Assembly (NCBI GenBank): GCA_963782505.1 | Contig: CAWAKG010000023.1 | Span: 10,409 to 74,408 of the forward strand | Direction of reading: 5' to 3' | Length of the DNA: 64,000 bases | Source: an uncultured Acidobacteriaceae bacterium | Lineage (GTDB): Bacteria > Acidobacteriota > Terriglobia > Terriglobales > Acidobacteriaceae | Part shown: positions 55 to 30,729 of the stretch, piece by piece | How the letters are laid out: each line of letters begins with the position of its first letter | Position numbering within the stretch: the first letter of the stretch is position 1 | Program-made: the position numbers and the translations under genes | The notes under the pieces: model-generated | The model's input: only the letters and a program-made list of their open reading frames with translations | Told to the model about the DNA's origin: nothing | The model's database searches: none

Positions 55-2196
55 CTATTCCCACTTGATACGATTTCCGCTGCCACCCCCCAAGGCGTAG
101 TCGCCGGCATCAAACTTCAGATCAACCAGCTTGTTGTTCCTCGACACCATGTTGCCCCAAAGGGTGTGGATCTCTACCTCCGGAAAAGCAGACAGGATAG
201 CGCGATTCCCCGATTCGGAAGAGAATGGCGCGACAACGAGTGGAGCATTCGCCGAGTCAAACCCCTCGCCTGCTCGGTCCTTAAGGGCCTGCAAGGCAAC
301 TCGAACGGTGGCCCCGCTATCGATAATAAGGTCTAGCAGAAGATATCTTCCGTGTGACGGCTTTCGGGGAATGTCGCCGTAACAGATCTCCGGATTTGCG
401 GTACGCTCACTCCGTGACGGCATGAGAATCCCGAGGGGAGACGAGGGAAACACTGCTTTGTAAGGTCTCAGCAGGGATAGGCCCGATCGCAGAATAAATA
501 TGGGCACGAGTTCTCCCGCGGTCCTGTTCGACGGAGACGTTCGCACATGGAACAGAAGAATTCCACTTATAGCCTCCAGACGGTCGACTGTTTTGGAAAC
601 ATTTTCCTGCTCAAGCAGCATTTCTGCCTTCAGTCGCTCAGCCTCTGCGTCCTTGTACACGCGAGGTTCACCGGCACGATTTGACCGGATTGCACGCAAT
701 AAGTGCCTTACTACTTCCGGAATACCGTCAGATGAGTGCGCCGCAACCAGGCCCGCTAATGCTGGCGAATGCTTCGCCAAGGCGGCGCGATCTAACCCGT
801 GCAACACGGGAAGGATTACCTTGAGACCATTTGTTTCCATGGCAGCCAGGGCATTTAACTCCTTCTTCGGCCAACTCTTTGCGAAGTAATTTTGGCTTGC
901 GATGACTACGCCAAACCTAGACTGTGCCAGGGCCTCATCAATGCTTGTTTGCACAGGGTCGCCCACCTTCAGTTCCAAACGGTCATACCAGACTTCCAGG
1001 CCTCTAGCTATGAGTTCTTGAGACAGTGGTTCAACGAATCCTTTGTCTTCGCTCGCATAAGAAATGAAGACATCCCATTGCTTTTCACCAGAGCCTGGAC
1101 GCTCAGGCACGTGCATCTCCGGGAATCGAGGCGGGCTCGAAGGTACTACGCTCCGCTCGGCTTGCATCGAAAGCAGTCGCAGCATCAGGTCTTGTGATTG
1201 CAGCCTCTCACTCAACGGGCCGAGGCTCACCACCGCCTCCTTAATAGCCCAAAGGGGCTGTGAGTTGGGAAAGCTACTCACCTCCCAGAAGCCTTGCGGA
1301 TTCTGTCGGTTCATAATCGTGATAGCGGCTGCTGCCAGTGCGTCGGTTTCCACGCCAACCCCGAGCCTAAGCAAAGACTGCACCATAAGCTCCTTTTGTG
1401 GCGAGGTCCAATAACTTTCAATGCTGCGGCCTTCAATCTTACAAGCGTACGTCTCCGACAACTGTTCCTTAGCGTCCTTGCATTGCACCATCCAATCTAT
1501 CGCTCGCAGGAAGATTGCAGCTCCCTTACGCTCGCCGCACGCCAGCAACGCCATAGTGGCGTCGGCCGTGTAGGCCAGTTCGCCCGGCTCGTCGGGATGT
1601 GCTCCCCAGGACGAGTCGTTGTTCTGATTGTTCTTGAGCCAATCTCGACCTCTCTTGATCGCGTCGCCAAACTCTCTTTCCCTCCCAGGGTATGCCGTCA
1701 GGGCCTTGAGGGCATAAGCAGTACTGGTGGTATCGCTTTTTTCGCCTGGGATGATTCCCCATCCGTGGTCAGCATTTTGAGCTCGCTCGAACCACTCGAC
1801 TCCTCTTTGCACCTTTGGTGATTCGTAGGGCTCACCAGTTTCCAACAGCGCAAGAAGGGCCAGGTAGGTAACACGTGCAAAACTGCACTCATCGCTGGAA
1901 TCACTGGTACCCCATCCGCCATCTTCGCGCGCCTTAGCTAGGATCAGTGCTTTCCCTGCTGACATTTGGGGAGAATTTTCTCGCTCACCGCAAGCCTTTA
2001 GCGAGATGATGGCGTTGGCTGTCCCACTGACACTGGGAGGCTTTGAAGTCTCCAGTGACTGACACCATCCGCTTTTCCCTTCTCCTTTGTATTGGAACCT
2101 GCTACGTATGTAACCCTGGGCTCTCGATAAGGCCCCACCGATCCGCTGTCGCAGGCCCAGTAGTTCTTCGATTTTCCAACTCGCAGCGGCCATCAT
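55..2196 (-). CDS. Three-module fusion: N-terminal prenyltransferase/terpene-cyclase-like alpha/alpha-toroid repeats, central TIR domain, C-terminal uracil-phosphoribosyltransferase-like (type I PRTase) domain
   Basis: 713-aa ORF. aa ~90-310 carry repeated GGWG/DHGWG/SSWG/QGFWE motifs. aa ~373-505 read 'WDVFISYASEDK...SQNYFAKSWPKKEL' (TIR with the W-x-x-x-E Glu motif, nt ~682-1080). aa ~535-705 read 'ILRSGLSLL...LLLDLIIDSGATV...FPEVEIHT...FDAGDYALGG', colinear with UPRT motifs (nt ~82-594). Confidence 0.75.
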   Translation of the reverse strand: MMAAASWKIEELLGLRQRIGGALSRAQGYIRSRFQYKGEGKSGWCQSLETSKPPSVSGTANAIISLKACGERENSPQMSAGKALILAKAREDGGWGTSDSSDECSFARVTYLALLALLETGEPYESPKVQRGVEWFERAQNADHGWGIIPGEKSDTTSTAYALKALTAYPGREREFGDAIKRGRDWLKNNQNNDSSWGAHPDEPGELAYTADATMALLACGERKGAAIFLRAIDWMVQCKDAKEQLSETYACKIEGRSIESYWTSPQKELMVQSLLRLGVGVETDALAAAAITIMNRQNPQGFWEVSSFPNSQPLWAIKEAVVSLGPLSERLQSQDLMLRLLSMQAERSVVPSSPPRFPEMHVPERPGSGEKQWDVFISYASEDKGFVEPLSQELIARGLEVWYDRLELKVGDPVQTSIDEALAQSRFGVVIASQNYFAKSWPKKELNALAAMETNGLKVILPVLHGLDRAALAKHSPALAGLVAAHSSDGIPEVVRHLLRAIRSNRAGEPRVYKDAEAERLKAEMLLEQENVSKTVDRLEAISGILLFHVRTSPSNRTAGELVPIFILRSGLSLLRPYKAVFPSSPLGILMPSRSERTANPEICYGDIPRKPSHGRYLLLDLIIDSGATVRVALQALKDRAGEGFDSANAPLVVAPFSSESGNRAILSAFPEVEIHTLWGNMVSRNNKLVDLKFDAGDYALGGGSGNRIKWE

Positions 2197-2470
2197 GTCT
2201 CCTAATTACATACTTCTTTCGTGACTGGCCAGAACTCAGGCTCACCGAAACTCACTTACTCAGACGTGACCCTGCGACAAGCTATTTATCACATTTTGAC
2301 GCGCCTCGCCCACCGAAGAAAGTTGCGAGAGGCGTTTCATGATCTTCTGGCCATTTCTAAGTGCTTTGTATAGAACACACAGTTATCATCGTGATGCGCC
2401 TGTGCATTCGCGCGGTTTTCAACCCCACTTAAACCCTTATTCACATCGTTAATGCACAATAACAGTAGCC

Positions 2471-3280
2471 ATGAAACCACAACGGGTGTGGCATAAGTTC
2501 AGTTGGCCTATTCGCTTTCATCCCAAGCCCGCCATTCCCCGATACGTTCCTCCGCTCGAGGAAGGCAAATATACAGTTAAACTGGCGAACGACGCCAACG
2601 AGTTCCGCGAAGCCCTTCGGTTGCGCTATCGCGTCTTTAACCTTGAGTTGCGCGAGGGACTGGCGACCTCCCACTCCACCGGCCACGATTTTGACGAGTT
2701 CGACCCTGTTGTCGACCACGTCATTGTCAAGTGCACCGCCGACGATGCCGTGATCGGCACGTATCGCCTTCAGACCGGCCTATCGGCGGCGAAGAACATC
2801 GGCTACTACAGCGAGCGCGAATTCGATTTCACGCCCTATGATCCGCTGCGCGCCGAGGTGCTGGAACTGGGACGCGCCTGCATCGAACGGGCGCACCGCA
2901 AAACGCCGGTGCTGACGCTGTTGTGGAAGGCCATCGCGCAGTACGCCCTGACACGCGGTTGCCGCTACCTCATCGGCTGCAGCTCGCTGACCTCGCAGGA
3001 CCCGATCGTAGGCTCCAAAGTCTACACCCAGATGCAGGACTTTCTGGCCCCGACGGAGATGCAGACCGTGCCGCGGCCGGCCTATGCCTTCGAGCTGCGC
3101 GACGGCGAAACCAGCGAAGAGGCCAAGATTCCCAAGCTGCTGCGGGCCTACCTGGCAACAGGAGCTCAGATCTGCGGGCCCCCGGCCATGGACCGCGAGT
3201 TCCGGACCATCGACTTTCTTACTTTGCTGGACTTAGGTAGAGTGCCCAAAGGCGCACGTGTGCGCTTTATGGGTGAATGA
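2471..3280 (+). CDS. olsB: GNAT-fold N-acyltransferase, OlsB-like (ornithine/lysine lipid N-acyltransferase)
   Basis: 269 aa. The N-terminal 'FREALRLRYRVFNLEL' region is typical of the OlsB/hemolysin-like Acetyltransf_5 family. Its stop overlaps the start of the PlsC-type acyltransferase (ATGA at 3277-3280). Confidence 0.6.
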   Translation: MKPQRVWHKFSWPIRFHPKPAIPRYVPPLEEGKYTVKLANDANEFREALRLRYRVFNLELREGLATSHSTGHDFDEFDPVVDHVIVKCTADDAVIGTYRLQTGLSAAKNIGYYSEREFDFTPYDPLRAEVLELGRACIERAHRKTPVLTLLWKAIAQYALTRGCRYLIGCSSLTSQDPIVGSKVYTQMQDFLAPTEMQTVPRPAYAFELRDGETSEEAKIPKLLRAYLATGAQICGPPAMDREFRTIDFLTLLDLGRVPKGARVRFMGE

Positions 3281-4026
3281 TCGAGTTCTTCCTCCGGCAA
3301 TCGCGTAGAGTTCGCCGCATAGTTCACTTCGCAGCCGTTCTGTCGCGCTGCCGGGTGCAAGCCGTCCGCCTGAAACGCTCGGCCTCGGCCAAAGCCTCTG
3401 TTTGCGTGCAGCTTTTGCAGGGTTGGTGCGCGGCTTCGCTGGCCGCAATGGAAGTTAAAGTAGAGGTTGAGGGTGTCCCGCCAACCGGTGGCCTTATTGT
3501 AAGTAATCACCTCAGCTATCTCGACATCCTGGTGTATAGCTCGCTTACGCAATGCGCCTTCGTCTCCAAGGCCGAGGTGGCCCGCTGGCCGATCTTCGGG
3601 CAGTTTGCGAAAGATGGAGGAACCATCTTCGTACAGCGCGAAGACCGCTTCTCCTTGCGCCGTGCGAATCAGCAGATTGCCGAATATCTGAGAGCCGGTG
3701 TCGCCGTCGCGCTCTTTCCGGAAGGCACCACCACTGACGGCTCCCACGTTTTGCGCTTCCATCCCTCGGTGTTTCAGTCGGCCATCGACGCGGGAGTTGT
3801 GGTGACCCCCTGCGCCCTCTCTTACACTGCGCTCGGCGGTAGTGAAAAAGAAATCGCCTGGTGGGGCGACGTGACGCTCATGCCGCACGCCTGGAAGCTG
3901 CTCGGCCAGCGCCAGGTGAGCGCGAAGGTGATCTTCGGAGAACCGCTGGCCGTGACCGGGGCGCGCAGAGAGCTTTGCGATCGAGCACGGGAGCGCGTCG
4001 TCGCGCTGAGGGAAGAGCTGGTATGA
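3277..4026 (+). CDS. olsA: Lysophospholipid (PlsC-type) acyltransferase, OlsA-like
   Basis: 249 aa with 'NHLSYLDILV' (H-x4-D) and 'FPEGTTTDG' motifs. Translationally coupled to the upstream olsB-like gene. Confidence 0.6.
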   Translation: MIEFFLRQSRRVRRIVHFAAVLSRCRVQAVRLKRSASAKASVCVQLLQGWCAASLAAMEVKVEVEGVPPTGGLIVSNHLSYLDILVYSSLTQCAFVSKAEVARWPIFGQFAKDGGTIFVQREDRFSLRRANQQIAEYLRAGVAVALFPEGTTTDGSHVLRFHPSVFQSAIDAGVVVTPCALSYTALGGSEKEIAWWGDVTLMPHAWKLLGQRQVSAKVIFGEPLAVTGARRELCDRARERVVALREELV

Positions 4027-11691: not shown

Positions 11692-11979
11692 ATGACGAAG
11701 TCGATGAAGTCCCTGATGATGGGCGCCGCACTGGCTGGTTTCATGGCTGGTGGCACCCTGGTCGCGCAAACCCATTCCAGCAGCACCACCGTTTCCTCGG
11801 CAGACAACGGCTCGTACGCCGCTGACTTTTCCAAGGACAAGCACGCCTGCAAGGGCCAGAACTCCTGCAAGGGCAAGGGCGGCTGCAAGACGGGCGACAA
11901 CGGCTGCAAGGGCAAGAACTCTTGCAAGGGCAAGGGCGGCTGCGCCACCGACGGCTCCAAGCCGCCTGACCAGCAGTAA
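11692..11979 (+). CDS. bufA: Bufferin-type RiPP precursor (Sec signal peptide plus 6-Cys repeat core)
   Basis: 95 aa with a GAGGAG RBS. Signal peptide 'MTKSMKSLMMGAALAGFMAGGTLVAQT'. Core 'CKGQNSCKGKGGCKTGDNGCKGKNSCKGKGGC' has 6 Cys in CKG-type repeats. Sits directly upstream of a DUF692 gene. Confidence 0.75.
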   Translation: MTKSMKSLMMGAALAGFMAGGTLVAQTHSSSTTVSSADNGSYAADFSKDKHACKGQNSCKGKGGCKTGDNGCKGKNSCKGKGGCATDGSKPPDQQ

Positions 11980-12057
11980 CCCGGTCCATCAACCACAGGG
12001 CCGGAGCTGGCAGGCTTCGGCCTTCTAAGGTTTTCGAAGTTCCTGTTCTGAGCATTT

Positions 12058-24336: not shown

Positions 24337-25291
24337 TTAGTCCAAGGATAATGAGACTTTCTCCGGTTTTTGTTCGCCCCACTGATCTGGCGTAGCGGGG
24401 ATGGGGGTGTGGGGCAAGGGGCCGGCGTTTGAGGCCCCTGGCCCCACTCCAGTTCTGTCGAAGCTTTTCACTTCAGCGGCAAACTCCTCCGGCGTTCTGT
24501 AGCCCAGGGACGAGTGCGGACGCTCCTGATTGTAGTGTCGCCGCCACTGCTCGATGATCTGCCGCGCATCGCTGAGCGAGACGAACCAGTTCTCGTTCAG
24601 GCACTCGTCGCGGAACTTGCCGTTGAAGCTCTCGATATAGCCGTTCTGCATCGGTTTTCCCGGCTGGATGAAGTGCTGCTCCACCCCTTCGGCGAAGCAC
24701 CACTGGTCCAGCGCACGCCCGGCGAACTCCGGGCCGTTGTCGGTGCGGATCTGCCGCGGTTCGTCCGCGCTGGCGGACCAGCCGCTCCAGCACCCGCACC
24801 ACGCGCGCTCCCGGCAGCGAGGTGTCCACCTCTATCGCCAGGCACTCGCGCGTATAGTCATCCACCACGTTCAGCGTGCGCAGCTTGCGCCCCGAGCTGA
24901 GCGTGTCGGCCATGAAGTCCAGCGACCACACCTGGTTCGGTGCCGTGGGCGCCGGCAGCGGCAGCCGTGGCACGCCTGCACAACGCTTACGCCGCCGCTT
25001 CCGCACCTGCAACCCTTCCAGCCGGTAGAGCCGGCAGATCCGCTTGTGGTTCACCCGCCAGCCCTCGCGCACCAGCCGGTCATGCAACCGGCGATAGCCA
25101 AAGCGCCGGAACTGGTGCGCCAACTCGCGCAACCGCTGCCGCAGCCGCCCGTCCTCCGAGCGCCGCGCCCGGTAGCGGTACGTCCCCCGATGCAGTCCGA
25201 TCAGCCCGCAGGCGCGTCGCTCCGAGACCGCGATTTCCGAGCGCATCACTACCGCCGCCTGCTTCCGCATCTGCGGGCTTACCACTTTTTT
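24337..25291 (-). pseudogene. IS3-family transposase OrfB (DDE integrase core) with an extra disabling frameshift
   Basis: A -1 frame from the slippery site gives 'KKVVSPQMRK...NQVWSLDFMAD...'. The conserved '[18 protein letters not shown]...[22 protein letters not shown]' continues in another frame, with the switch near 24755-24770. Confidence 0.75.
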
Positions 25292-25545
25292 GCGACCACC
25301 GCCTGCAACGCCTGCTTGTCCAACGTCAGGTCCGCTACCAGGTGCTTCAGCCGCCGGTTCTCCTCTTCCAGAGCCCGCAACCGCCGCGCCTCGCTCACCT
25401 GCATCCCGCCGTACTTTGCCTTCCAGCGGTACAGGCTCGCTCGCGTAATGCCATGCCGGCGACACAACTCGCCGGGATCGGCCCCGGCTTCCGATTCCCT
25501 CAGAATGGCGATGATCTGTTCTTCGTTGAATCGACTCTTGCGCAC
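25279..25545 (-). CDS. IS3-family transposase OrfA (HTH)
   Basis: 88 aa. 'EEQIIAILRESEAG...ELCRRHGITRASLYRWKAKYGG' plus a leucine-zipper-like tail. Ends at the A_AAA_AAG slippery site (25291-25285). Confidence 0.85.
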   Translation of the reverse strand: MRKSRFNEEQIIAILRESEAGADPGELCRRHGITRASLYRWKAKYGGMQVSEARRLRALEEENRRLKHLVADLTLDKQALQAVVAKKW

Positions 25546-25681
25546 GACTCCTCCTCCGCCCTAGCGGGCTATGTTAAGGGGAGAAGTCTCATTTCCGCTG
25601 GACTAATTTCCGGGGGGCAGGTCACCGACACTTACAAACAATTTGATAATGCAACCCATCGCCCATAATTTTCTCCTTATC

Positions 25682-25704
25682 GGTTAGTCAAAAGAATTAT
25701 TACC
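25682..25704. repeat. Third, internal copy of the IS1595 no. 1 terminal repeat
   Basis: GGTTAGTCAAAAGAATTATTACC, in the same orientation as the right-end copy (27694-27716). Lies between the 247-aa cargo gene and the Cys-motif gene, with its TTGACT facing that gene. Confidence 0.7.
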
Positions 25705-25737
25705 ATGTATTTGTCCAAAGAAAACGGAGCCATAGAT

Positions 25738-26481
25738 TTACGGGAAGAATCGCTCGAAACGTGGGATCACTGCCGTAGCAATGAAGTGGTATATCTCAGC
25801 GATACCATGGGGACTCTCAGAAATTCCAGAAATGTCGCCGCCGAACTTTATCGTAACGGAGACGGTTGGGTAGAAATCCAGTTTGTACTTCATGGCCAGC
25901 GGGACGCTTACTATATGGCAATCATTCGTTGTGACCGTTTCCACCAATCCGCTGGCATAGTCCCCAGCGGTGAGGCTGGGGAAGTAAAACAGAACCTCGT
26001 GCCCATTAACCGGAATACGCCTGTGCTTGTCGAGGTTACACATCTCGTTAAGCCTCCAAAGCGGATGCGTTTTGTAGGCTGTCCCTCTGTTGTATGGCTG
26101 AAGAAATTCAAGCTCACAAAGAGCTTCCTTGGGCAGCCCTTCCGTTTGATTACGAAAGCGATTTCTGCTTTCGAGAGTATTGACTTCGAGAATAGGAAAT
26201 TGGGTCTTTTCGGGGATACTTTTAAGTCGAGCAAGTGCCCAGATCAGTTGGTCGAGCGAAGATCGCATGTTGTAGAAGGCATCTCCGACAATCAGCGCAA
26301 AGGTTTCGGGCAAATCGACGAGCTGCATGTGCAAGATGTACCGCTGATTTTCAATGTCTTCCTCGCGGACAACGGTGCAAGCATCAGAGGAAGCGGCAAA
26401 GGCCTCAATTTCCCTGTCGAGTCGTTGCAGATGTTGGTACGCCCAACTCAACTTCAGCTTAGCGTCAGATATTCCTGGCAT
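25738..26481 (-). CDS. Hypothetical cargo protein with an 'LNxxCNLDKHRR' motif
   Basis: 247 aa with a GGGAGAA RBS and a helical N-terminus ('AKLKLSWAYQHLQRLDREIEAF'). 'DKHRRIPVNGH' fits R-x(4-6)-H (HEPN-like), unproven. A 266-aa ORF (25705..26505) overlaps it on the opposite strand. Confidence 0.5.
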   Translation of the reverse strand: MPGISDAKLKLSWAYQHLQRLDREIEAFAASSDACTVVREEDIENQRYILHMQLVDLPETFALIVGDAFYNMRSSLDQLIWALARLKSIPEKTQFPILEVNTLESRNRFRNQTEGLPKEALCELEFLQPYNRGTAYKTHPLWRLNEMCNLDKHRRIPVNGHEVLFYFPSLTAGDYASGLVETVTTNDCHIVSVPLAMKYKLDFYPTVSVTIKFGGDISGISESPHGIAEIYHFIATAVIPRFERFFP

Positions 26482-26510
26482 GGAGACGCTTCTCCCAACG
26501 TATAATCGGC

Positions 26511-26690
26511 ATGATGAATAAACCGAAGTCGCCTGAAATGCAGAGATTTGAGAGTGCGCTTAAAAGTGTACTCTCGGTATCAAAATCCGATATGAAGAAA
26601 ATGCTGGCCGACGAAAAAGCGGCCAATGCTGGCAAACCGAAGCGCGGCCCAAAGCCTAAGACTTCCGCTTCGGGCCGCGAGGCTTCCTAA
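26511..26690 (+). CDS. Small basic-tailed hypothetical protein (59 aa)
   Basis: Below the ORF-track cutoff: 'MMNKPKSPEMQRFESALKSVLSVSKSDMKKMLADEKAANAGKPKRGPKPKTSASGREAS'. Its stop overlaps the convergent transposase stop. Confidence 0.4.
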   Translation: MMNKPKSPEMQRFESALKSVLSVSKSDMKKMLADEKAANAGKPKRGPKPKTSASGREAS

Positions 26691-27667
26691 AAGGGTTCGG
26701 CTGTCGCTTCACTGCCAGTCTTGCCAGTTAGCTCTTTGAACGTCAGGCGACGATTGGAGACTTGCGAGAGAGCCAATACGAAACGGTCAGCATCGGTCAA
26801 TGGATTGTCTTTGGTAGCGCGATTGTTGAATCTGAAAATCTGTTCGTCAAGATACCGCTCCATGTGGAATGGCTCAACAGCAACATACGTTCCGCGCAAC
26901 GTGCGCTTCAGTAGCGACCAGAAATTCTCAATCCCGTTCGTGTGGACTTGTCCATCAACATAGCGCTCAGTATGGTCTACAAACTCATGCACGAAGCGGT
27001 GACGCAGATCGTCGTAACCGTGCCAGCCATCCGTATAGACTTTCGAGCCGTGCTTTACTTCGTGCAGCACTTCAGTCTGAAGCGTTTCGCGCTTTACGTT
27101 TGGAATAACCTTCGCACGCACTTGGCGCAGATCGCGGTCAAGCAATCCAATCACGATGGTTTTACCCTTCGTTCCGCCTTGCCAGTCGATGTTAAGAGCC
27201 AGCCGTTTGTCCTTGTGCATATTCTTCAGCTTGCCGCCGATGAATGTCTCATCTATCTCGACCGGGCCAGAATTTCCCCCAAGTTTGAAAGCGAAGTCTT
27301 TGCGCTTCAGAACTGTTCTCAGGCGATGCAACACGAACCAAGCGGACTTCTGAGTTATCCCAAGTGCGCGGTGAATCTCGTATGAAGAGACGCCATTCTT
27401 CGCTGATACCAGCATCCACAGCGCAGGGAGCCACTTCTGCAATGGGATGGGCGAGTCCTCAAAGATTGTGCCGACCTTCACTGAGAATTGCTTGCGGCAA
27501 GCCTTGCACTTCCAGCGCTTCTGGGTTGCAAGATAGTAATGCTCTTTCGCAAAGCAATGCGGACAAATCGGGCCATCGGGCCAACGAAGCGAAGCAACGG
27601 CATCAATGCAAGTCTGTTCGTCTGCAAAGTATTGAACCGCTTCGAGTAAGGTCATTGGCTCTTTCAT
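26687..27667 (-). CDS. IS1595-family (ISXO2-like) transposase
   Basis: 326 aa. N-terminal zinc ribbon 'CPHCFAKEHYYLATQKRWKCKACRKQFSVKVGTIFEDS', an HTH region and a DDE region 'VEIDETFIGG...'. Confidence 0.85.
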   Translation of the reverse strand: MKEPMTLLEAVQYFADEQTCIDAVASLRWPDGPICPHCFAKEHYYLATQKRWKCKACRKQFSVKVGTIFEDSPIPLQKWLPALWMLVSAKNGVSSYEIHRALGITQKSAWFVLHRLRTVLKRKDFAFKLGGNSGPVEIDETFIGGKLKNMHKDKRLALNIDWQGGTKGKTIVIGLLDRDLRQVRAKVIPNVKRETLQTEVLHEVKHGSKVYTDGWHGYDDLRHRFVHEFVDHTERYVDGQVHTNGIENFWSLLKRTLRGTYVAVEPFHMERYLDEQIFRFNNRATKDNPLTDADRFVLALSQVSNRRLTFKELTGKTGSEATAEPF

Positions 27668-27674
27668 GATTCAA

Positions 27675-27703
27675 AGTCTATGCCTAATCCTTTGGTTAGT
27701 CAA
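27675..27703 (-). promoter_or_regulatory. Putative sigma70-type promoter inside the right IR of IS1595 no. 1
   Basis: On the minus strand: TTGACT (27703-27698), a 17-nt spacer, TAGACT (27680-27675), and the ATG 8 nt further on. This implies a near-leaderless transposase mRNA. Confidence 0.45.
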
Positions 27704-27810
27704 GTAAATTATTACCTCAGCTCGCTCAATGCTATCAAGATTTTAGAGGCGAGATTATCCTGTTGACAAAAGTTTTAGTTCATGCGAGGATGTTTGCATG
27801 GACGCAGAAG

Positions 27811-27939
27811 TTATTGCTTTTTCTTTGGTTTATCCGCTGGTGCCGCTTTCAAGATGCGGCGAATATCGTGCTTTATCGAAGCAACTAGCTGTCGCGTCGG
27901 TATTTTCTTCAGTTGTTCCTTCTTCTGCTTCTCATCCAT
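27811..27939 (-). CDS. Small basic-tailed ORF antisense to the transposase no. 2 leader (42 aa)
   Basis: 'MDEKQKKEQLKKIPTRQLVASIKHDIRRILKAAPADKPKKKQ'. Its tail resembles that of the 26511..26690 product. Confidence 0.3.
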   Translation of the reverse strand: MDEKQKKEQLKKIPTRQLVASIKHDIRRILKAAPADKPKKKQ

Positions 27940-27952
27940 CGCGGAGGCTCCC

Positions 27953-28873
27953 ATGACGCTGCTGGATATCGTCTCCAAGTTTGACTCCGATGACCGCTGC
28001 CGTGAATTGTTAGAGCGCCTGCGCTGGCCGCTCGGCCCGGAGTGCATTCGCTGCCATACTCAAGAACTGGCGCGGCTCAATAGCAAACTGTTCTACTGTA
28101 AAGCCTGCGACTATCAGTTTACCGTAACTGCAAACACGATCTTCCATGATTCTCACTTGCCGCTGATTAAGTGGTTTGTTGCGGTCATCCTGCTTTGCCA
28201 AGCCAAGAAAGGCATGAGCGCCCATCAACTCAAGCGAACCCTGTGGGGCGTCAATAAAGGCTCGTATCAAACTGCATGGTATCTCTGCCATCGCATACGT
28301 CGCGCCATGAAGCAGGTACAACAGTCCGCGATGGCTGGTACTTGCGAAATGGACGAAACCTATATCGGCGGTTGTCATAAGGGTGCTGGCCTTCGCGGAC
28401 GTGGCGCTGGCAAGGAAACCGTCATTGGCATCCGGCAACGTGATGGTGGTCTGCGCTTCTTCCACGCTCAGGACGTGAAGTCTGGAACGCTGGCGGCCTA
28501 CATCAAGGAGAACGTCAGCACTGACGTGGAAGTTATCGTTACCGACGATTTCGCTTCCTATCCGTTCGCCATGACGAAGGCGGGAGTCGAAGCTGGAAAG
28601 CACAAGCGTATCAATCACAGTAGCGGAGTGTATGTCGATGGGGAGGTCCATACTAACTCAATCGAATCCGCCTTCTCGCTGCTCAAGCGCGGCATAGTCG
28701 GAAGCTGGCACAAGATCAGCGCCAAACATCTTCAAGCGTACCTTGACGAAATGACTTTCCGGTTCGACCGCCGCAACAACCCCAATCTGTTTGTAGATAC
28801 CTTGCGCCACATGATTACCGCTGACCCGATGACGTTTGAGGAGCTGACGGCGGACAAGGAAAGTGCTGCATGA
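27953..28873 (+). CDS. IS1595-family (ISXO2-like) transposase, second divergent copy
   Basis: Internal start MTLLDIV follows GGAGG. 'CIRCHTQELARLNSKLFYCKACDYQFTVTANTIFHDSHLPLIKW' zinc ribbon and 'CEMDETYIGG' DDE region. Confidence 0.85.
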   Translation: MTLLDIVSKFDSDDRCRELLERLRWPLGPECIRCHTQELARLNSKLFYCKACDYQFTVTANTIFHDSHLPLIKWFVAVILLCQAKKGMSAHQLKRTLWGVNKGSYQTAWYLCHRIRRAMKQVQQSAMAGTCEMDETYIGGCHKGAGLRGRGAGKETVIGIRQRDGGLRFFHAQDVKSGTLAAYIKENVSTDVEVIVTDDFASYPFAMTKAGVEAGKHKRINHSSGVYVDGEVHTNSIESAFSLLKRGIVGSWHKISAKHLQAYLDEMTFRFDRRNNPNLFVDTLRHMITADPMTFEELTADKESAA

Positions 28874-29343
28874 TGGCAGAGGAACTCACTGTTCGCTGTG
28901 ATTGCGGGCACACCATTCGACTCCCCGTGTCCAAGCCTCCACAATCAGTGATACGTCAACTGCCGTTAACCAAGGGCGGGCTGCCAAGAAACGTTTTATG
29001 TCCTCACTGCAACCGCGTGTCCGCCTATTCACCCGATAAGTTCCACAAGAAGTCTTTTCAAAGAACTGTCCGAGATCAACTCCGTGGAGATCAGGTCTGT
29101 GTTTGCATACGAATGCAATGCGGTGAACAAGGTTGCGAATCTCGGGTAAACATTCGACTGTCAATGAGAGTGGCCCGCTCTCAAGACATGCGAGAAGAAG
29201 CGTTGAACATGATCGGGAAAGCCACCCCATCCAATGTCGTGTGTGAAGACGGACACCCCCAATCCGTCTTTCGGGACGTTCTTGCGGTGTTAGTTGATCC
29301 GGGGCAGGAAGGTCTGGATTGGAATTCGATACCAGAGGGGTAG
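28870..29343 (+). CDS. Four-Cys-motif small protein (paralog of the IS3-disrupted gene), coupled to transposase no. 2
   Basis: 157 aa. The start overlaps the transposase stop (ATGATG/TGA). Motifs: 'CDCGHTIRLP', 'LCPHC', 'QCGEQGCESR', 'CEDGH'. Confidence 0.65.
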   Translation: MMAEELTVRCDCGHTIRLPVSKPPQSVIRQLPLTKGGLPRNVLCPHCNRVSAYSPDKFHKKSFQRTVRDQLRGDQVCVCIRMQCGEQGCESRVNIRLSMRVARSQDMREEALNMIGKATPSNVVCEDGHPQSVFRDVLAVLVDPGQEGLDWNSIPEG

Positions 29344-29431
29344 ACACGACGGCTCTTTGCCTCCTGTGCGATAATGAAGTCGCGCAGAAAGCACCCACAG
29401 CGGGCTCGCTGGTGGAATAACGGTTTGCGAT

Positions 29432-29470
29432 GGCCACGGCTAGCACCGTGGCCTTTCTATTTATGTTTAT
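29432..29470 (+). terminator. Rho-independent terminator after the transposase no. 2 / Cys-motif gene pair
   Basis: GGCCACGG (29432-29439), loop CTAGCA, CCGTGGCC (29446-29453), then TTTCTATTTATGTTTAT. Confidence 0.65.
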
Positions 29471-29501
29471 AGCACGGCTGACAAGTACTACACTTTCCGA
29501 C

Positions 29502-29828
29502 ATGACGAGAAAGATAGCTGTGTGCGTTCTGTTTCTGCTCTGCTGGATACCGCTTGCGAAGGCTCAAAAGCCGACTGCGACGCCGACTAACAACCCTCCC
29601 TCCGATCGCTACCAGCTAATACCTGTAAAGGTTGAGATTCAAAACGGAAACGGAGAGGTAAACACGCTGTTTCTGTTGGACACAAAGACCGGCAAGGTCT
29701 GGCGTTATCAACCCTTCTTCATGGGGAAGAACAAAACAACGAACGAGCAGCGGATTGACGACGAAGTGTTCATCCCGATTGGATTCGCGGAATACGTGCC
29801 GAAGGGTAAAGCGAGTCCAGGGCAATAG
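29502..29828 (+). CDS. Small secreted hypothetical protein (cargo of IS1595 no. 2)
   Basis: Internal Met of ORF 29430..29828. Signal peptide 'MTRKIAVCVLFLLCWIPLAKAQ'. 108 aa. Confidence 0.5.
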   Translation: MTRKIAVCVLFLLCWIPLAKAQKPTATPTNNPPSDRYQLIPVKVEIQNGNGEVNTLFLLDTKTGKVWRYQPFFMGKNKTTNEQRIDDEVFIPIGFAEYVPKGKASPGQ

Positions 29829-29847
29829 GAACCGCCAGGGGGTGCTA

Positions 29848-30729
29848 TTACGTGATCTCTTCTCCGCCTAGAGAGTGGAACTTCATCTCCCGATATTCTC
29901 GACTTTGGTAAGCAATTACTGTATCAACCCGCTGGCTGAACACCTCAATACGTTCGTCCGTTTGAGAGACAACTGCATTTGCCGCCATCCGTAGTAAAAC
30001 ATCGAGCCCTCTTCCCATATCTTCAGCAAACTTCATATCAAGCGGCAATACGTGAATAGGCGGTACATGCTCAGTCTTTAGAAGCACTGCGTTCGTTCTG
30101 CCGCCGCAAAACGCCCCGTAATCCTTCTTGGCTCGGTACATGAGATAGGAGATTTCCAGTAACCGAGTGCGTGGCGGTGCCATCCTAGAGAAAAGTGAAC
30201 GATAGAGCGGGTCGGTTGCACTTGCGCCAGTTCCGACTGCGACATAGCCGTAACTATCGTCCGACCAAGTATGCCGCCTCACCGTGTTCGGCGGCTCGCA
30301 GAAGTAGAGTGCCAATCCTCCACCCGCAACGGAGTCAACAAACGCCCCGACAACCATCTGAATAACGGGAGCAGTGCTGAAGGCTGATACCCAGCGCGTC
30401 ATTCTGTTTATTAGTACGTCCTCAACTTCTATAAGCGTCTTGGGGTCCATTTGCTCAAGATCGCGCAATATATGTGGTATTAGAGTGTTGGCCGCATTGC
30501 CGTCTGCCGTCGAATTGGCGATGACGTAGCAACCTGATTCGGTCACGGTGGAATGAACCTTAGTTGCATCGAATGTGGAACCGTCCGCCCCAACGACACG
30601 GGTATCGGCAGCGACGATCAGCCCACCTCCGCAGAGCACGCCTAAGGCAATGGTCACTGGCGGCAATTCCTTCCGCTTGAGCCGCTTTGCTAGAACTGCG
30701 ATTGCTTCGGGATGCGGCCTAATAAACAT
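29848..30729 (-). CDS. Proteasome beta-subunit-like (Ntn hydrolase, T1 family) protein with a C-terminal extension
   Basis: 293 aa. 'PPV-TIALGVLCGGGLIVAADTRV...DATKVH...YVAVGTGAS...RAKKDYGAFCGGRTNAVLL' is colinear with 20S beta/HslV motifs. Thr26, Asp42 and Lys57 correspond to T1/D17/K33. Confidence 0.6.
   Translation of the reverse strand: MFIRPHPEAIAVLAKRLKRKELPPVTIALGVLCGGGLIVAADTRVVGADGSTFDATKVHSTVTESGCYVIANSTADGNAANTLIPHILRDLEQMDPKTLIEVEDVLINRMTRWVSAFSTAPVIQMVVGAFVDSVAGGGLALYFCEPPNTVRRHTWSDDSYGYVAVGTGASATDPLYRSLFSRMAPPRTRLLEISYLMYRAKKDYGAFCGGRTNAVLLKTEHVPPIHVLPLDMKFAEDMGRGLDVLLRMAANAVVSQTDERIEVFSQRVDTVIAYQSREYREMKFHSLGGEEIT

Follow-up and report, generated by a model that had tools for sequence, protein, structure and literature searches.

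The window analysed here is a stretch of 64,000 nucleotides from an uncultured Acidobacteriaceae bacterium (GenBank assembly GCA_963782505.1, contig CAWAKG010000023.1, positions 10,409 to 74,408 of the forward strand). Its first gene lies on the minus strand at 55..2196 and is a single intact open reading frame (ORF) of 713 aa plus the stop codon (55-57), with the window edge 54 nt beyond that stop. The product combines an N-terminal toroid of the squalene-hopene cyclase (SHC) type, a TIR domain and a C-terminal phosphoribosyltransferase (PRTase) with the fold of uracil phosphoribosyltransferase (UPRT). This three-module composition had been proposed in a first-pass annotation made from the letters alone, and it holds: all three modules score above the Pfam gathering thresholds, the toroid and PRTase folds are backed by AlphaFold and Foldseek, and the quoted motifs, including the catalytic glutamate E446, are all at the positions given for them. 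The features of the gene are the following:

2199..2203, minus strand: Shine-Dalgarno-like AGGAG, 3-7 nt 5' of the first ATG, read directly from the upstream sequence
1177..2196, minus strand: alpha/alpha6 toroid of the SHC or class II terpene-cyclase type, aa 1-340 (~10-340), from Pfam, phmmer, AlphaFold and Foldseek
1087..1176, minus strand: remnant of a helical stalk (aa ~341-350) and proline-rich linker SVVPSSPPRFPEMHVPERPGSGEK, from the family alignment and hydropathy
682..1086, minus strand: TIR domain of the AbTIR/PdTIR/TcpB type, aa 371-505, from Pfam, PDB sequences and PADLOC
859..861, minus strand: GAG codon of E446, the glutamate of W-x-x-x-E (SWPKKEL)
58..669, minus strand: complete UPRT-fold type I PRTase, aa 510-713, from Pfam, PDB, phmmer, family alignments, AlphaFold and Foldseek
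304..342, minus strand: loop for phosphoribosyl pyrophosphate (PRPP) or ribose-5-phosphate, LLLDLIIDSGATV, aa 619-631, aligned with UPRT 'IVDPMLATGGS'
85..114, minus strand: FDAGDYALGG, aa 695-704, aligned with the base/Mg site 'GDAGDR' of UPRT

The N-terminal module contains five QW-like repeats, with the motifs GGWG (93-96), DHGWG (143-147), SSWG (195-198) and QGFWE (301-305), and is matched by Pfam over aa ~43-240 (SQHop_cyclase_C/N, 1e-15 and 4e-14; Prenyltrans, 4e-7). Its AlphaFold model is a single alpha/alpha6 barrel with a predicted local distance difference test (pLDDT) of 91 and a predicted template modelling score (pTM) of 0.90. The Foldseek neighbours are SHC, MstE (6sbc), drimenyl-PP synthase and 8pak, with TM scores of ~0.6-0.65 and 15-18% identity, and they also include the sugar transaldolase AprG. 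The barrel with its QW repeats is shared with SHC, MstE, drimenyl-PP synthase and 8pak; unlike MstE, 8pak and SHC, the toroid lacks DxDD, carries a beta-hairpin of its own (aa 245-266, specific to the family) and is linked to two transmembrane (2TM) helices, TIR or PRTase. A catalytic terpene cyclase was rejected, the protein having one 340-aa barrel instead of the beta-gamma double barrel and no DxDD, and the TIGR01507 equivalog cut-off was missed by far (48.5 bits against 431). Because the DxDD-type acid motif is not conserved in the family alignment, the modelled toroid is probably a binding or sensor scaffold rather than a cyclase. The signature of the family is present in the window protein (GGW.Q, DGGW twice, SDVT.TAY, W..-.ER and AP.WA..EA), and 13 invariant columns are common to the window toroid and the family alignment, at 31-39% identity to family members of ~450 aa.

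The TIR domain is matched by Pfam TIR_2 (4e-22, aa 376-474, 79 bits against a cut-off of 28) and by Pfam TIR. Among PDB sequences, phmmer identified AbTIR (8g83, E=1.2e-29; 7uwg), PdTIR (3h16, 1e-29), 7uxr and TcpB/BtpA (4lqc), with matches to AbTIR, PdTIR and TcpB along the whole TIR length at E ~1e-29. The identity to AbTIR is ~50% across the whole domain, and the FISHASEDK-type N-terminal strand is shared with AbTIR-type proteins, as is W-x-x-x-E. The motif SQNYFAKSWPKKEL occupies aa 434-447, and its E446 is aligned with the glutamate of 'DWTNYEL' in AbTIR and of 'EWPQKEL' in PdTIR. AbTIR is described as an NADase that cleaves NAD+ and forms 2'cADPR (bioRxiv 10.1101/2022.05.07.491051). Judged by its sequence, the window TIR is an ordinary member of this known NAD-cleaving class, with the corresponding predicted activity. 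AbTIR-type proteins have only a short coiled-coil N-terminus, whereas the window TIR is internal, between the 340-aa toroid and the 200-aa PRTase. The nearest TIR relatives carry fused TPR, CHAT plus STAND ATPase, or metallophosphoesterase modules.

The C-terminal module is matched by Pfam UPRTase (PF14681; 5e-13, aa 562-680, 49.4 bits against 27), and its sequence matches in the PDB are all uracil PRTases. The AlphaFold model built from the family alignment (pLDDT 79, pTM 0.82) retrieved UPRTs in all of the top 26 Foldseek positions, with TM scores of 0.71-0.77 over the whole fold of ~208 residues; PyrR and the purine PRTases came far lower. With Upp and Fur1 the module shares the full UPRT fold and the ligand motifs, that is the arginine of ILR-x-G (RxG), the loop arginine, the PRPP loop and DAGD, all of them aligned and invariant in the family. 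The PRPP loop has the form D-x4-SG-x-T, with D and SG.T invariant; F, D, G, D, Y and G are invariant in FDAGDYALGG, and all 17 family-invariant residues are kept in the window PRTase. The NCBIfam Upp equivalog cut-offs are missed (TIGR01091, 31.8 bits against 208; NF001097, 31.9 against 114), and identity with an Upp ortholog was rejected on these scores. Unlike Upp and Fur1, the family has invariant residues of its own (Y, Y, W, Y, R...W) and is always coupled to the toroid; its substrate therefore need not be uracil.

The relatives of the two outer modules are depicted by an exhaustive phmmer search of 1.84 billion representative proteins; the C-terminal module by itself gave no match in a word-indexed search, and its relatives were recovered by phmmer only. 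About 18 clusters of proteins of 440-474 aa match aa ~10-340 of the window protein at 31-41% identity, and nearly all of them terminate in a coiled coil and two transmembrane helices, running on from the point where the window protein has its stalk remnant and linker. Stand-alone proteins of 216-225 aa match aa 510-713 at ~40% identity (P0080, P0112 and P0139; later P0218-P0221) and are colinear with the window PRTase along its whole length. The identity between fused and stand-alone PRTases is 36%, and among the stand-alone ones 35%, so the fused module has not diverged further than the others have among themselves.

These two kinds of genes form a cassette. In all ten loci where the upstream gene is visible (L004/5, L006, L007-9, L010, L011, L013, L014, L015, L020 and the P0079 contig), the toroid gene is followed directly, on the same strand, by the stand-alone PRTase gene. 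GTDB genomes gave only two loci and JGI metagenomes only four, with one duplicate among them (L016 being L011). The toroid stop and the PRTase start overlap by 1-8 nt in six of the ten, which indicates translational coupling; a small indel would be enough for fusion. The cassette was found in Deferribacteres (L010, a metagenome-assembled genome), in Chloroflexota (L011, likewise) and in uncultured lineages; it is rare, sporadic and patchy in phyla, and across these phyla the pairing of toroid and PRTase is obligate. A mirror-tree (Mantel) comparison of toroid and PRTase distances (r=-0.15, p~0.65) is uninformative on co-evolution, the members being about equally distant from each other. The cassette is not represented in PADLOC-DB v2 (2023) and was not found in the searchable literature.

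Accessory genes were counted over 12 loci, the ten above plus L017 and L018, where the contig ends inside the PRTase gene. The most frequent is a ribokinase-like PfkB, identified in six (L007 8623-9612, L010 6614-7543, L011 3382-4284, L013 2217-3095, L015 2557-3471 and L018 238-1170), with E-values of 1e-86 to 1e-98 between loci; these kinases are a tight dedicated subfamily scoring 45 bits against the NCBIfam ribokinase cut-off of 300. Next come a class I methyltransferase (4/12), an ITP/XTPase-family NTPase (2/12), a HAD-IB phosphatase (1/12) and a MutT-like NUDIX protein (1/12). The set is variable, being missing in L004, in L006 and at the window gene, and L020 stops at the contig edge. 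No TIR domain was identified in any of the 12 loci. The Chloroflexota toroid protein (L011 711-1901) has 396 aa and ends just past the start of the coiled coil, without the two transmembrane helices, so the membrane anchor is not universal in the cassette.

Rare toroid proteins carry TIR instead. P0081, with a more distant toroid (22% identity), has TIR at the position of the two helices, no transmembrane segment and no PRTase. P0105 (L019 684-3092; 802 aa) has two SHC-like toroid barrels followed by an AbTIR-type TIR at the C-terminus, which indicates that fusions of SHC-type toroids with TIR arose more than once. A third candidate, P0077, was rejected because its N-terminus is unrelated and it contains two TIRs and transmembrane helices. 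The 2TM module and TIR thus alternate at one position behind the toroid. The genes 5' of P0081 on the same strand (L012 4259-9539) encode a phage integrase, a radical SAM/SPASM protein resembling PADLOC pVip (viperin; 3e-19), an ADH_N protein and a YfcD-like NUDIX protein, and may be a separate nucleotide-modifying defence cassette.

Set against this family, the window protein has the toroid signature and, joined to it, a PRTase of the FD[AI]GDYA[LF]GG family, and it lacks the C-terminal coiled coil and 2TM; no transmembrane segment is predicted in it by hydropathy, against two in nearly all family members. It is the toroid and PRTase genes of the cassette joined in frame, with TIR replacing the coiled coil and the two helices. 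This architecture is unique. A word-indexed search of 5.8 billion proteins gave the protein itself as the only full-length match, and among the 1.84 billion representatives phmmer identified no other protein combining toroid, TIR and PRTase and none combining TIR and PRTase without the toroid. Nothing on this domain combination was found in the searchable literature, and the first-pass annotation did not know it as a described system.

The fusion is not an assembly artefact, since the identical protein is present on a 177.8-kb ENA contig and in two Logan assemblies from different runs; with the ORF identical in three other assemblies, an assembly chimera was rejected. Public gene calls use the second methionine as start, giving a product of 712 aa (P0001), and it was this form that was matched in the exact look-up, the whole 713-aa product giving no match. 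The AGGAG box is contained in a divergent intergenic region of 274 nt (2197-2470). The scan for promoters and terminators identified no sigma-70 consensus site and only below-chance terminator-like hairpins, and an Rfam scan of the window gave no match. The gene is AT-richer than its neighbours, as had been supposed: its GC content is 54.8%, against 59.5% for the window, and its GC at third codon positions (GC3) is 0.58, against 0.72 +/- 0.08 in 42 other long ORFs. We infer that it was horizontally acquired.

The flank beyond coordinate 1, where the first-pass annotation had expected any partner genes to lie, is provided by contig L001, which matches 12.2 kb of the window at 99.63% identity and adds 9.9 kb. 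It holds unrelated genes on the opposite strand: a phospholipase-B-like protein, a TPR protein, a porin-like protein, a C1 peptidase and a glutamyl-tRNA synthetase (GluRS). On the other side, the divergent upstream genes encode OlsB-like and OlsA-like acyltransferases, followed by DegP and a TonB-dependent receptor. As the upstream neighbours are divergent and the downstream ones are on the opposite strand, the gene is monocistronic and without partner gene. None of the accessory enzymes of the cassette was found in the 64-kb window or in the L001 flank. The acyltransferase genes (2471-4026, plus strand) overlap each other, are of the Acetyltransf_5/FeeM-like and PlsC types (ornithine-lipid synthesis) and are unrelated to the fusion gene. 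In L001 (12191-19867) the phospholipase-B-like, glutamyl-tRNA synthetase and peptidase S13 genes are each broken into 2-3 consecutive ORFs, and 36 mismatches and 9 gaps separate the contig from the window in the 12.2 kb; the splits probably stem from frameshifts in a long-read assembly rather than from pseudogenes.

The protein was compared with several known defence systems. Its PADLOC matches fall in the TIR part only, namely PDC-S66 (3e-46) and ThsB of Thoeris (6e-20). Membership in PDC-S66, a candidate single-gene system, was rejected, the protein covering positions 142-279, the TIR half, and not the whole of the 282-position model. Thoeris was rejected because no ThsA-type gene (SIR2, SLOG or Macro) was identified by Pfam in the 10 kb flanking the window gene on each side. 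A type I PRTase core as a nucleotide-directed conflict module is likewise found in ShosT, in the retron III-A PRTase and in PRTase-CE, where CE stands for 'conflict effector' (PMC12871103); ShosT is described as a PRTase effector in defence (PMC11961720) and Retron-Eco11 as employing a PRTase-like effector (PMC12746101). The window PRTase is much closer to housekeeping UPRT than to these three, and the protein gave no match to the ShosT, PRTase_III-A or PRTase-CE models of PADLOC and Pfam. Some of its relatives score at or near the threshold of PRTase-CE (L010, 28.2 bits against a gathering threshold of 27; P0112, 23 bits; the L020 PRTase, weakly) and match PRTase_III-A only faintly. ShosTA was rejected for want of a PADLOC ShosT match and of a DprA/SLOG (ShosA-like) neighbour, and retron type III-A for want of a reverse transcriptase among the neighbours and of an Rfam match (noncoding RNA) in the window. 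TIR effectors fused to sensor domains are already known; the toroid-PRTase cassette and its single-chain TIR form appear to be new.

The preferred reading, with a probability of roughly 0.4, is that the protein is a single-chain derivative of the two-gene cassette and acts as a conflict device of the abortive-infection type. The toroid gene and the PRTase gene would have been fused, with an AbTIR-type TIR NADase inserted at the position of the membrane module. The cytoplasmic toroid would serve as a platform for sensing or assembly and, upon activation, the TIR would cleave NAD+, self-associating as AbTIR does. The PRTase would supply a second nucleotide-directed head, aimed at the PRPP or nucleotide pool like ShosT, the retron III-A PRTase and PRTase-CE; by burning PRPP or splitting nucleoside monophosphates (NMPs) it might, speculatively, also block the resynthesis of NAD+. 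Of the elements of this model, what the PRTase does is the least certain. In Pycsar and CBASS effectors a constant sensor domain is combined with interchangeable 2TM or TIR modules, the two classic killing modules, and by this parallel the toroid may be a sensor and the TIR an effector; the likeness is architectural only, the window protein sharing no homologous domain with them and having neither a cyclase nor a CD-NTase gene.

Toroid and PRTase probably act as one complex, because translational coupling ties the two everywhere and the window protein unites them in one chain, a 'Rosetta stone' that argues for this. A sensor in tight complex with nucleotide-degrading enzymes is found in PUA-Calcineurin-CE-HAD (PMC12871103). 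A wider proposal, tentative and on balance doubtful, is that the toroid-PRTase pair is the core of an unrecognised nucleotide-centred immune family, in which the toroid would sense a small molecule or infection, the UPRT-derived enzyme would make or destroy a (modified) nucleotide and 2TM or TIR would execute abortive infection, the window protein being the only known single-chain NAD-depleting form. If true, two types of modules would be added to bacterial immunity, a SHC-type toroid sensor and a UPRT-derived PRTase partner enzyme, and NAD+ depletion by TIR would be linked with PRPP or nucleotide chemistry in one polypeptide. Being soluble and encoded by a single gene, the window protein is an entry to the cryptic cassette that involves no membrane protein and no operon.

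The evidence for a defence role is mixed. In its favour are the kind of TIR involved, what the nearest TIR relatives are fused to, the rarity and patchy spread, the low GC3 and the mobile or defence neighbours seen at roughly one locus in three: L006 contains a type IV restriction enzyme (PADLOC 6e-79) together with a MobA/L relaxase, L020 genes for ParA, DnaD and an AEP primase, L004 a transposase gene, and the P0081 locus the integrase and the viperin-like gene. Several observations weigh against it. No defence gene lies beside the window gene, whose neighbours are those listed above. The surroundings of L007, L010, L011 and L013 look housekeeping, and the PfkB, methyltransferase, ITP/XTPase and HAD phosphatase set at these loci reads as modified-nucleotide biosynthesis or salvage, outside the reach of an effector model. 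Profiles of both families gave no relatives among IMG/VR viral contigs; on PLSDB plasmids the PRTase had no match and the toroid matches were confined to SHC or prenyltransferase-repeat genes of the ordinary kind. Neither toroid nor PRTase is covered by a PADLOC model, and the window protein gave no match to PRTase-CE (PF24390) at E<=1. Only one instance of the fusion was found, which leaves selection for it undocumented. TIRs of the AbTIR class also occur outside phage defence, as in the Brucella virulence factors TcpB/BtpA and in NAD-RNA decapping enzymes (PMC10937652). The first-pass annotation had held that a consistent placement of homologs in housekeeping operons, with no association to defence islands, would speak against an immune or signalling role. 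This applies in part: homologs of two of the three modules do share a conserved operon with nucleotide-metabolism enzymes, and defence or mobile genes are neighbours at only some loci. That role is plausible, given the TIR ~50% identical to AbTIR and the PDC-S66 and ThsB matches; the two parts of the proposal that did not stand are the partner genes beyond coordinate 1 and the coupling of the PRTase to the product of the TIR.

The kinase and the methyltransferase would be better accounted for by nucleotide signalling, the main alternative, considered unlikely as a whole. The PRTase would then be a synthase making an NMP from PRPP and an unusual or infection-derived base, the toroid cavity would be the receptor and 2TM or TIR the effector; PfkB, methyltransferase, NUDIX, HAD or ITPase might tailor or degrade the NMP, and the window protein would hold all the roles in one chain. 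The conserved catalytic motifs of the PRTase agree with this, as do the accessory enzymes, all of nucleotide-tailoring or -degrading kinds and with a dedicated kinase subfamily, and the constant ligand-binding-type domain with interchangeable 2TM and TIR that recalls Pycsar and CBASS. Modified nucleotides as immune triggers have a precedent in PUA-Cal-HAD and m6-dAMP (PMC12871103). Synthases and receptors, however, normally act in trans and are rarely coupled or fused, whereas coupling or fusion is the rule in the toroid-PRTase loci; the ligand pocket is putative, in a type of toroid that binds isoprenoids and not nucleotides; and neither the window nor the L001 flank contains the accessory genes. 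The same operons could also serve a non-immune metabolism, making or salvaging a modified nucleoside or nucleotide, or possibly a ribosylated isoprenoid, at the membrane, with the window TIR as an N-glycosidase feeding or regulating the pathway. Their content of PRTase, Nudix/HAD and kinase resembles nucleoside-antibiotic and salvage pathways, the nearest folds of the toroid are terpene cyclases and AprG, several loci have housekeeping surroundings, and no family member was found on IMG/VR phage contigs or PLSDB plasmids. This too is improbable: the toroid is a single barrel in which DxDD is not conserved, the family turns up only sporadically and very seldom in phyla that are unrelated, roughly one locus in three has mobile-element neighbours, the accessory genes vary from locus to locus, and an AbTIR-type TIR in place of a membrane anchor is typical of conflict systems. 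If the cassette were metabolic, it would represent a modified-nucleotide pathway with dedicated kinase and methyltransferase, and an unusual non-immune setting for an AbTIR-type TIR.

Two further explanations concern the fusion itself. According to the first-pass annotation, the PRTase would process or sense a ribose-phosphate nucleotide made by the adjacent TIR, which would be a derivative of adenosine diphosphate ribose (ADPR) or of its cyclic form (cADPR). The two domains are physically fused, the ribose-5-phosphate moiety of ADPR could fit a PRPP-loop fold, and in phage NAD+ reconstitution pathways PRTase-like enzymes act on ADPR-pyrophosphate. Yet the PRTases of the 12 TIR-free cassettes keep the invariant residues of the fused one, TIR and PRTase were never found together without the toroid, and P0081 combines toroid and TIR without PRTase. 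As the PRTase partners the toroid even where there is no TIR at all, this coupling is the least supported of the models and is very unlikely. An accidental recent fusion, that is a neutral or decaying chimeric gene in one lineage with no selected function, would agree with a singleton among billions of proteins, with its atypical composition and with the lack of operon partners; the 2.1-kb frame is nevertheless intact, the motifs of all three modules are preserved, the Shine-Dalgarno sequence is good and the identical sequence comes from three other assemblies, and this explanation is given the lowest odds.

Two other observations were made in the window. ARAGORN predicted a tRNA-Pro(TGG) of 98 nt at 11899-11996 on the minus strand, with the anticodon at position 38; no tRNA was identified in the window by the Rfam scan at gathering thresholds, and the prediction may be a false positive or a gene bearing an intron or insert. 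A patch of low GC content (0.49-0.53 against ~0.60) extends over 24473-30729, about 22 kb from the fusion gene. It comprises an rve-type integrase (24473-25465, minus strand), two IS1595-family transposases (26687-27667, minus strand; 27782-28873, plus strand) and several ORFs without Pfam match, and represents an insertion sequence cluster or a small mobile island.

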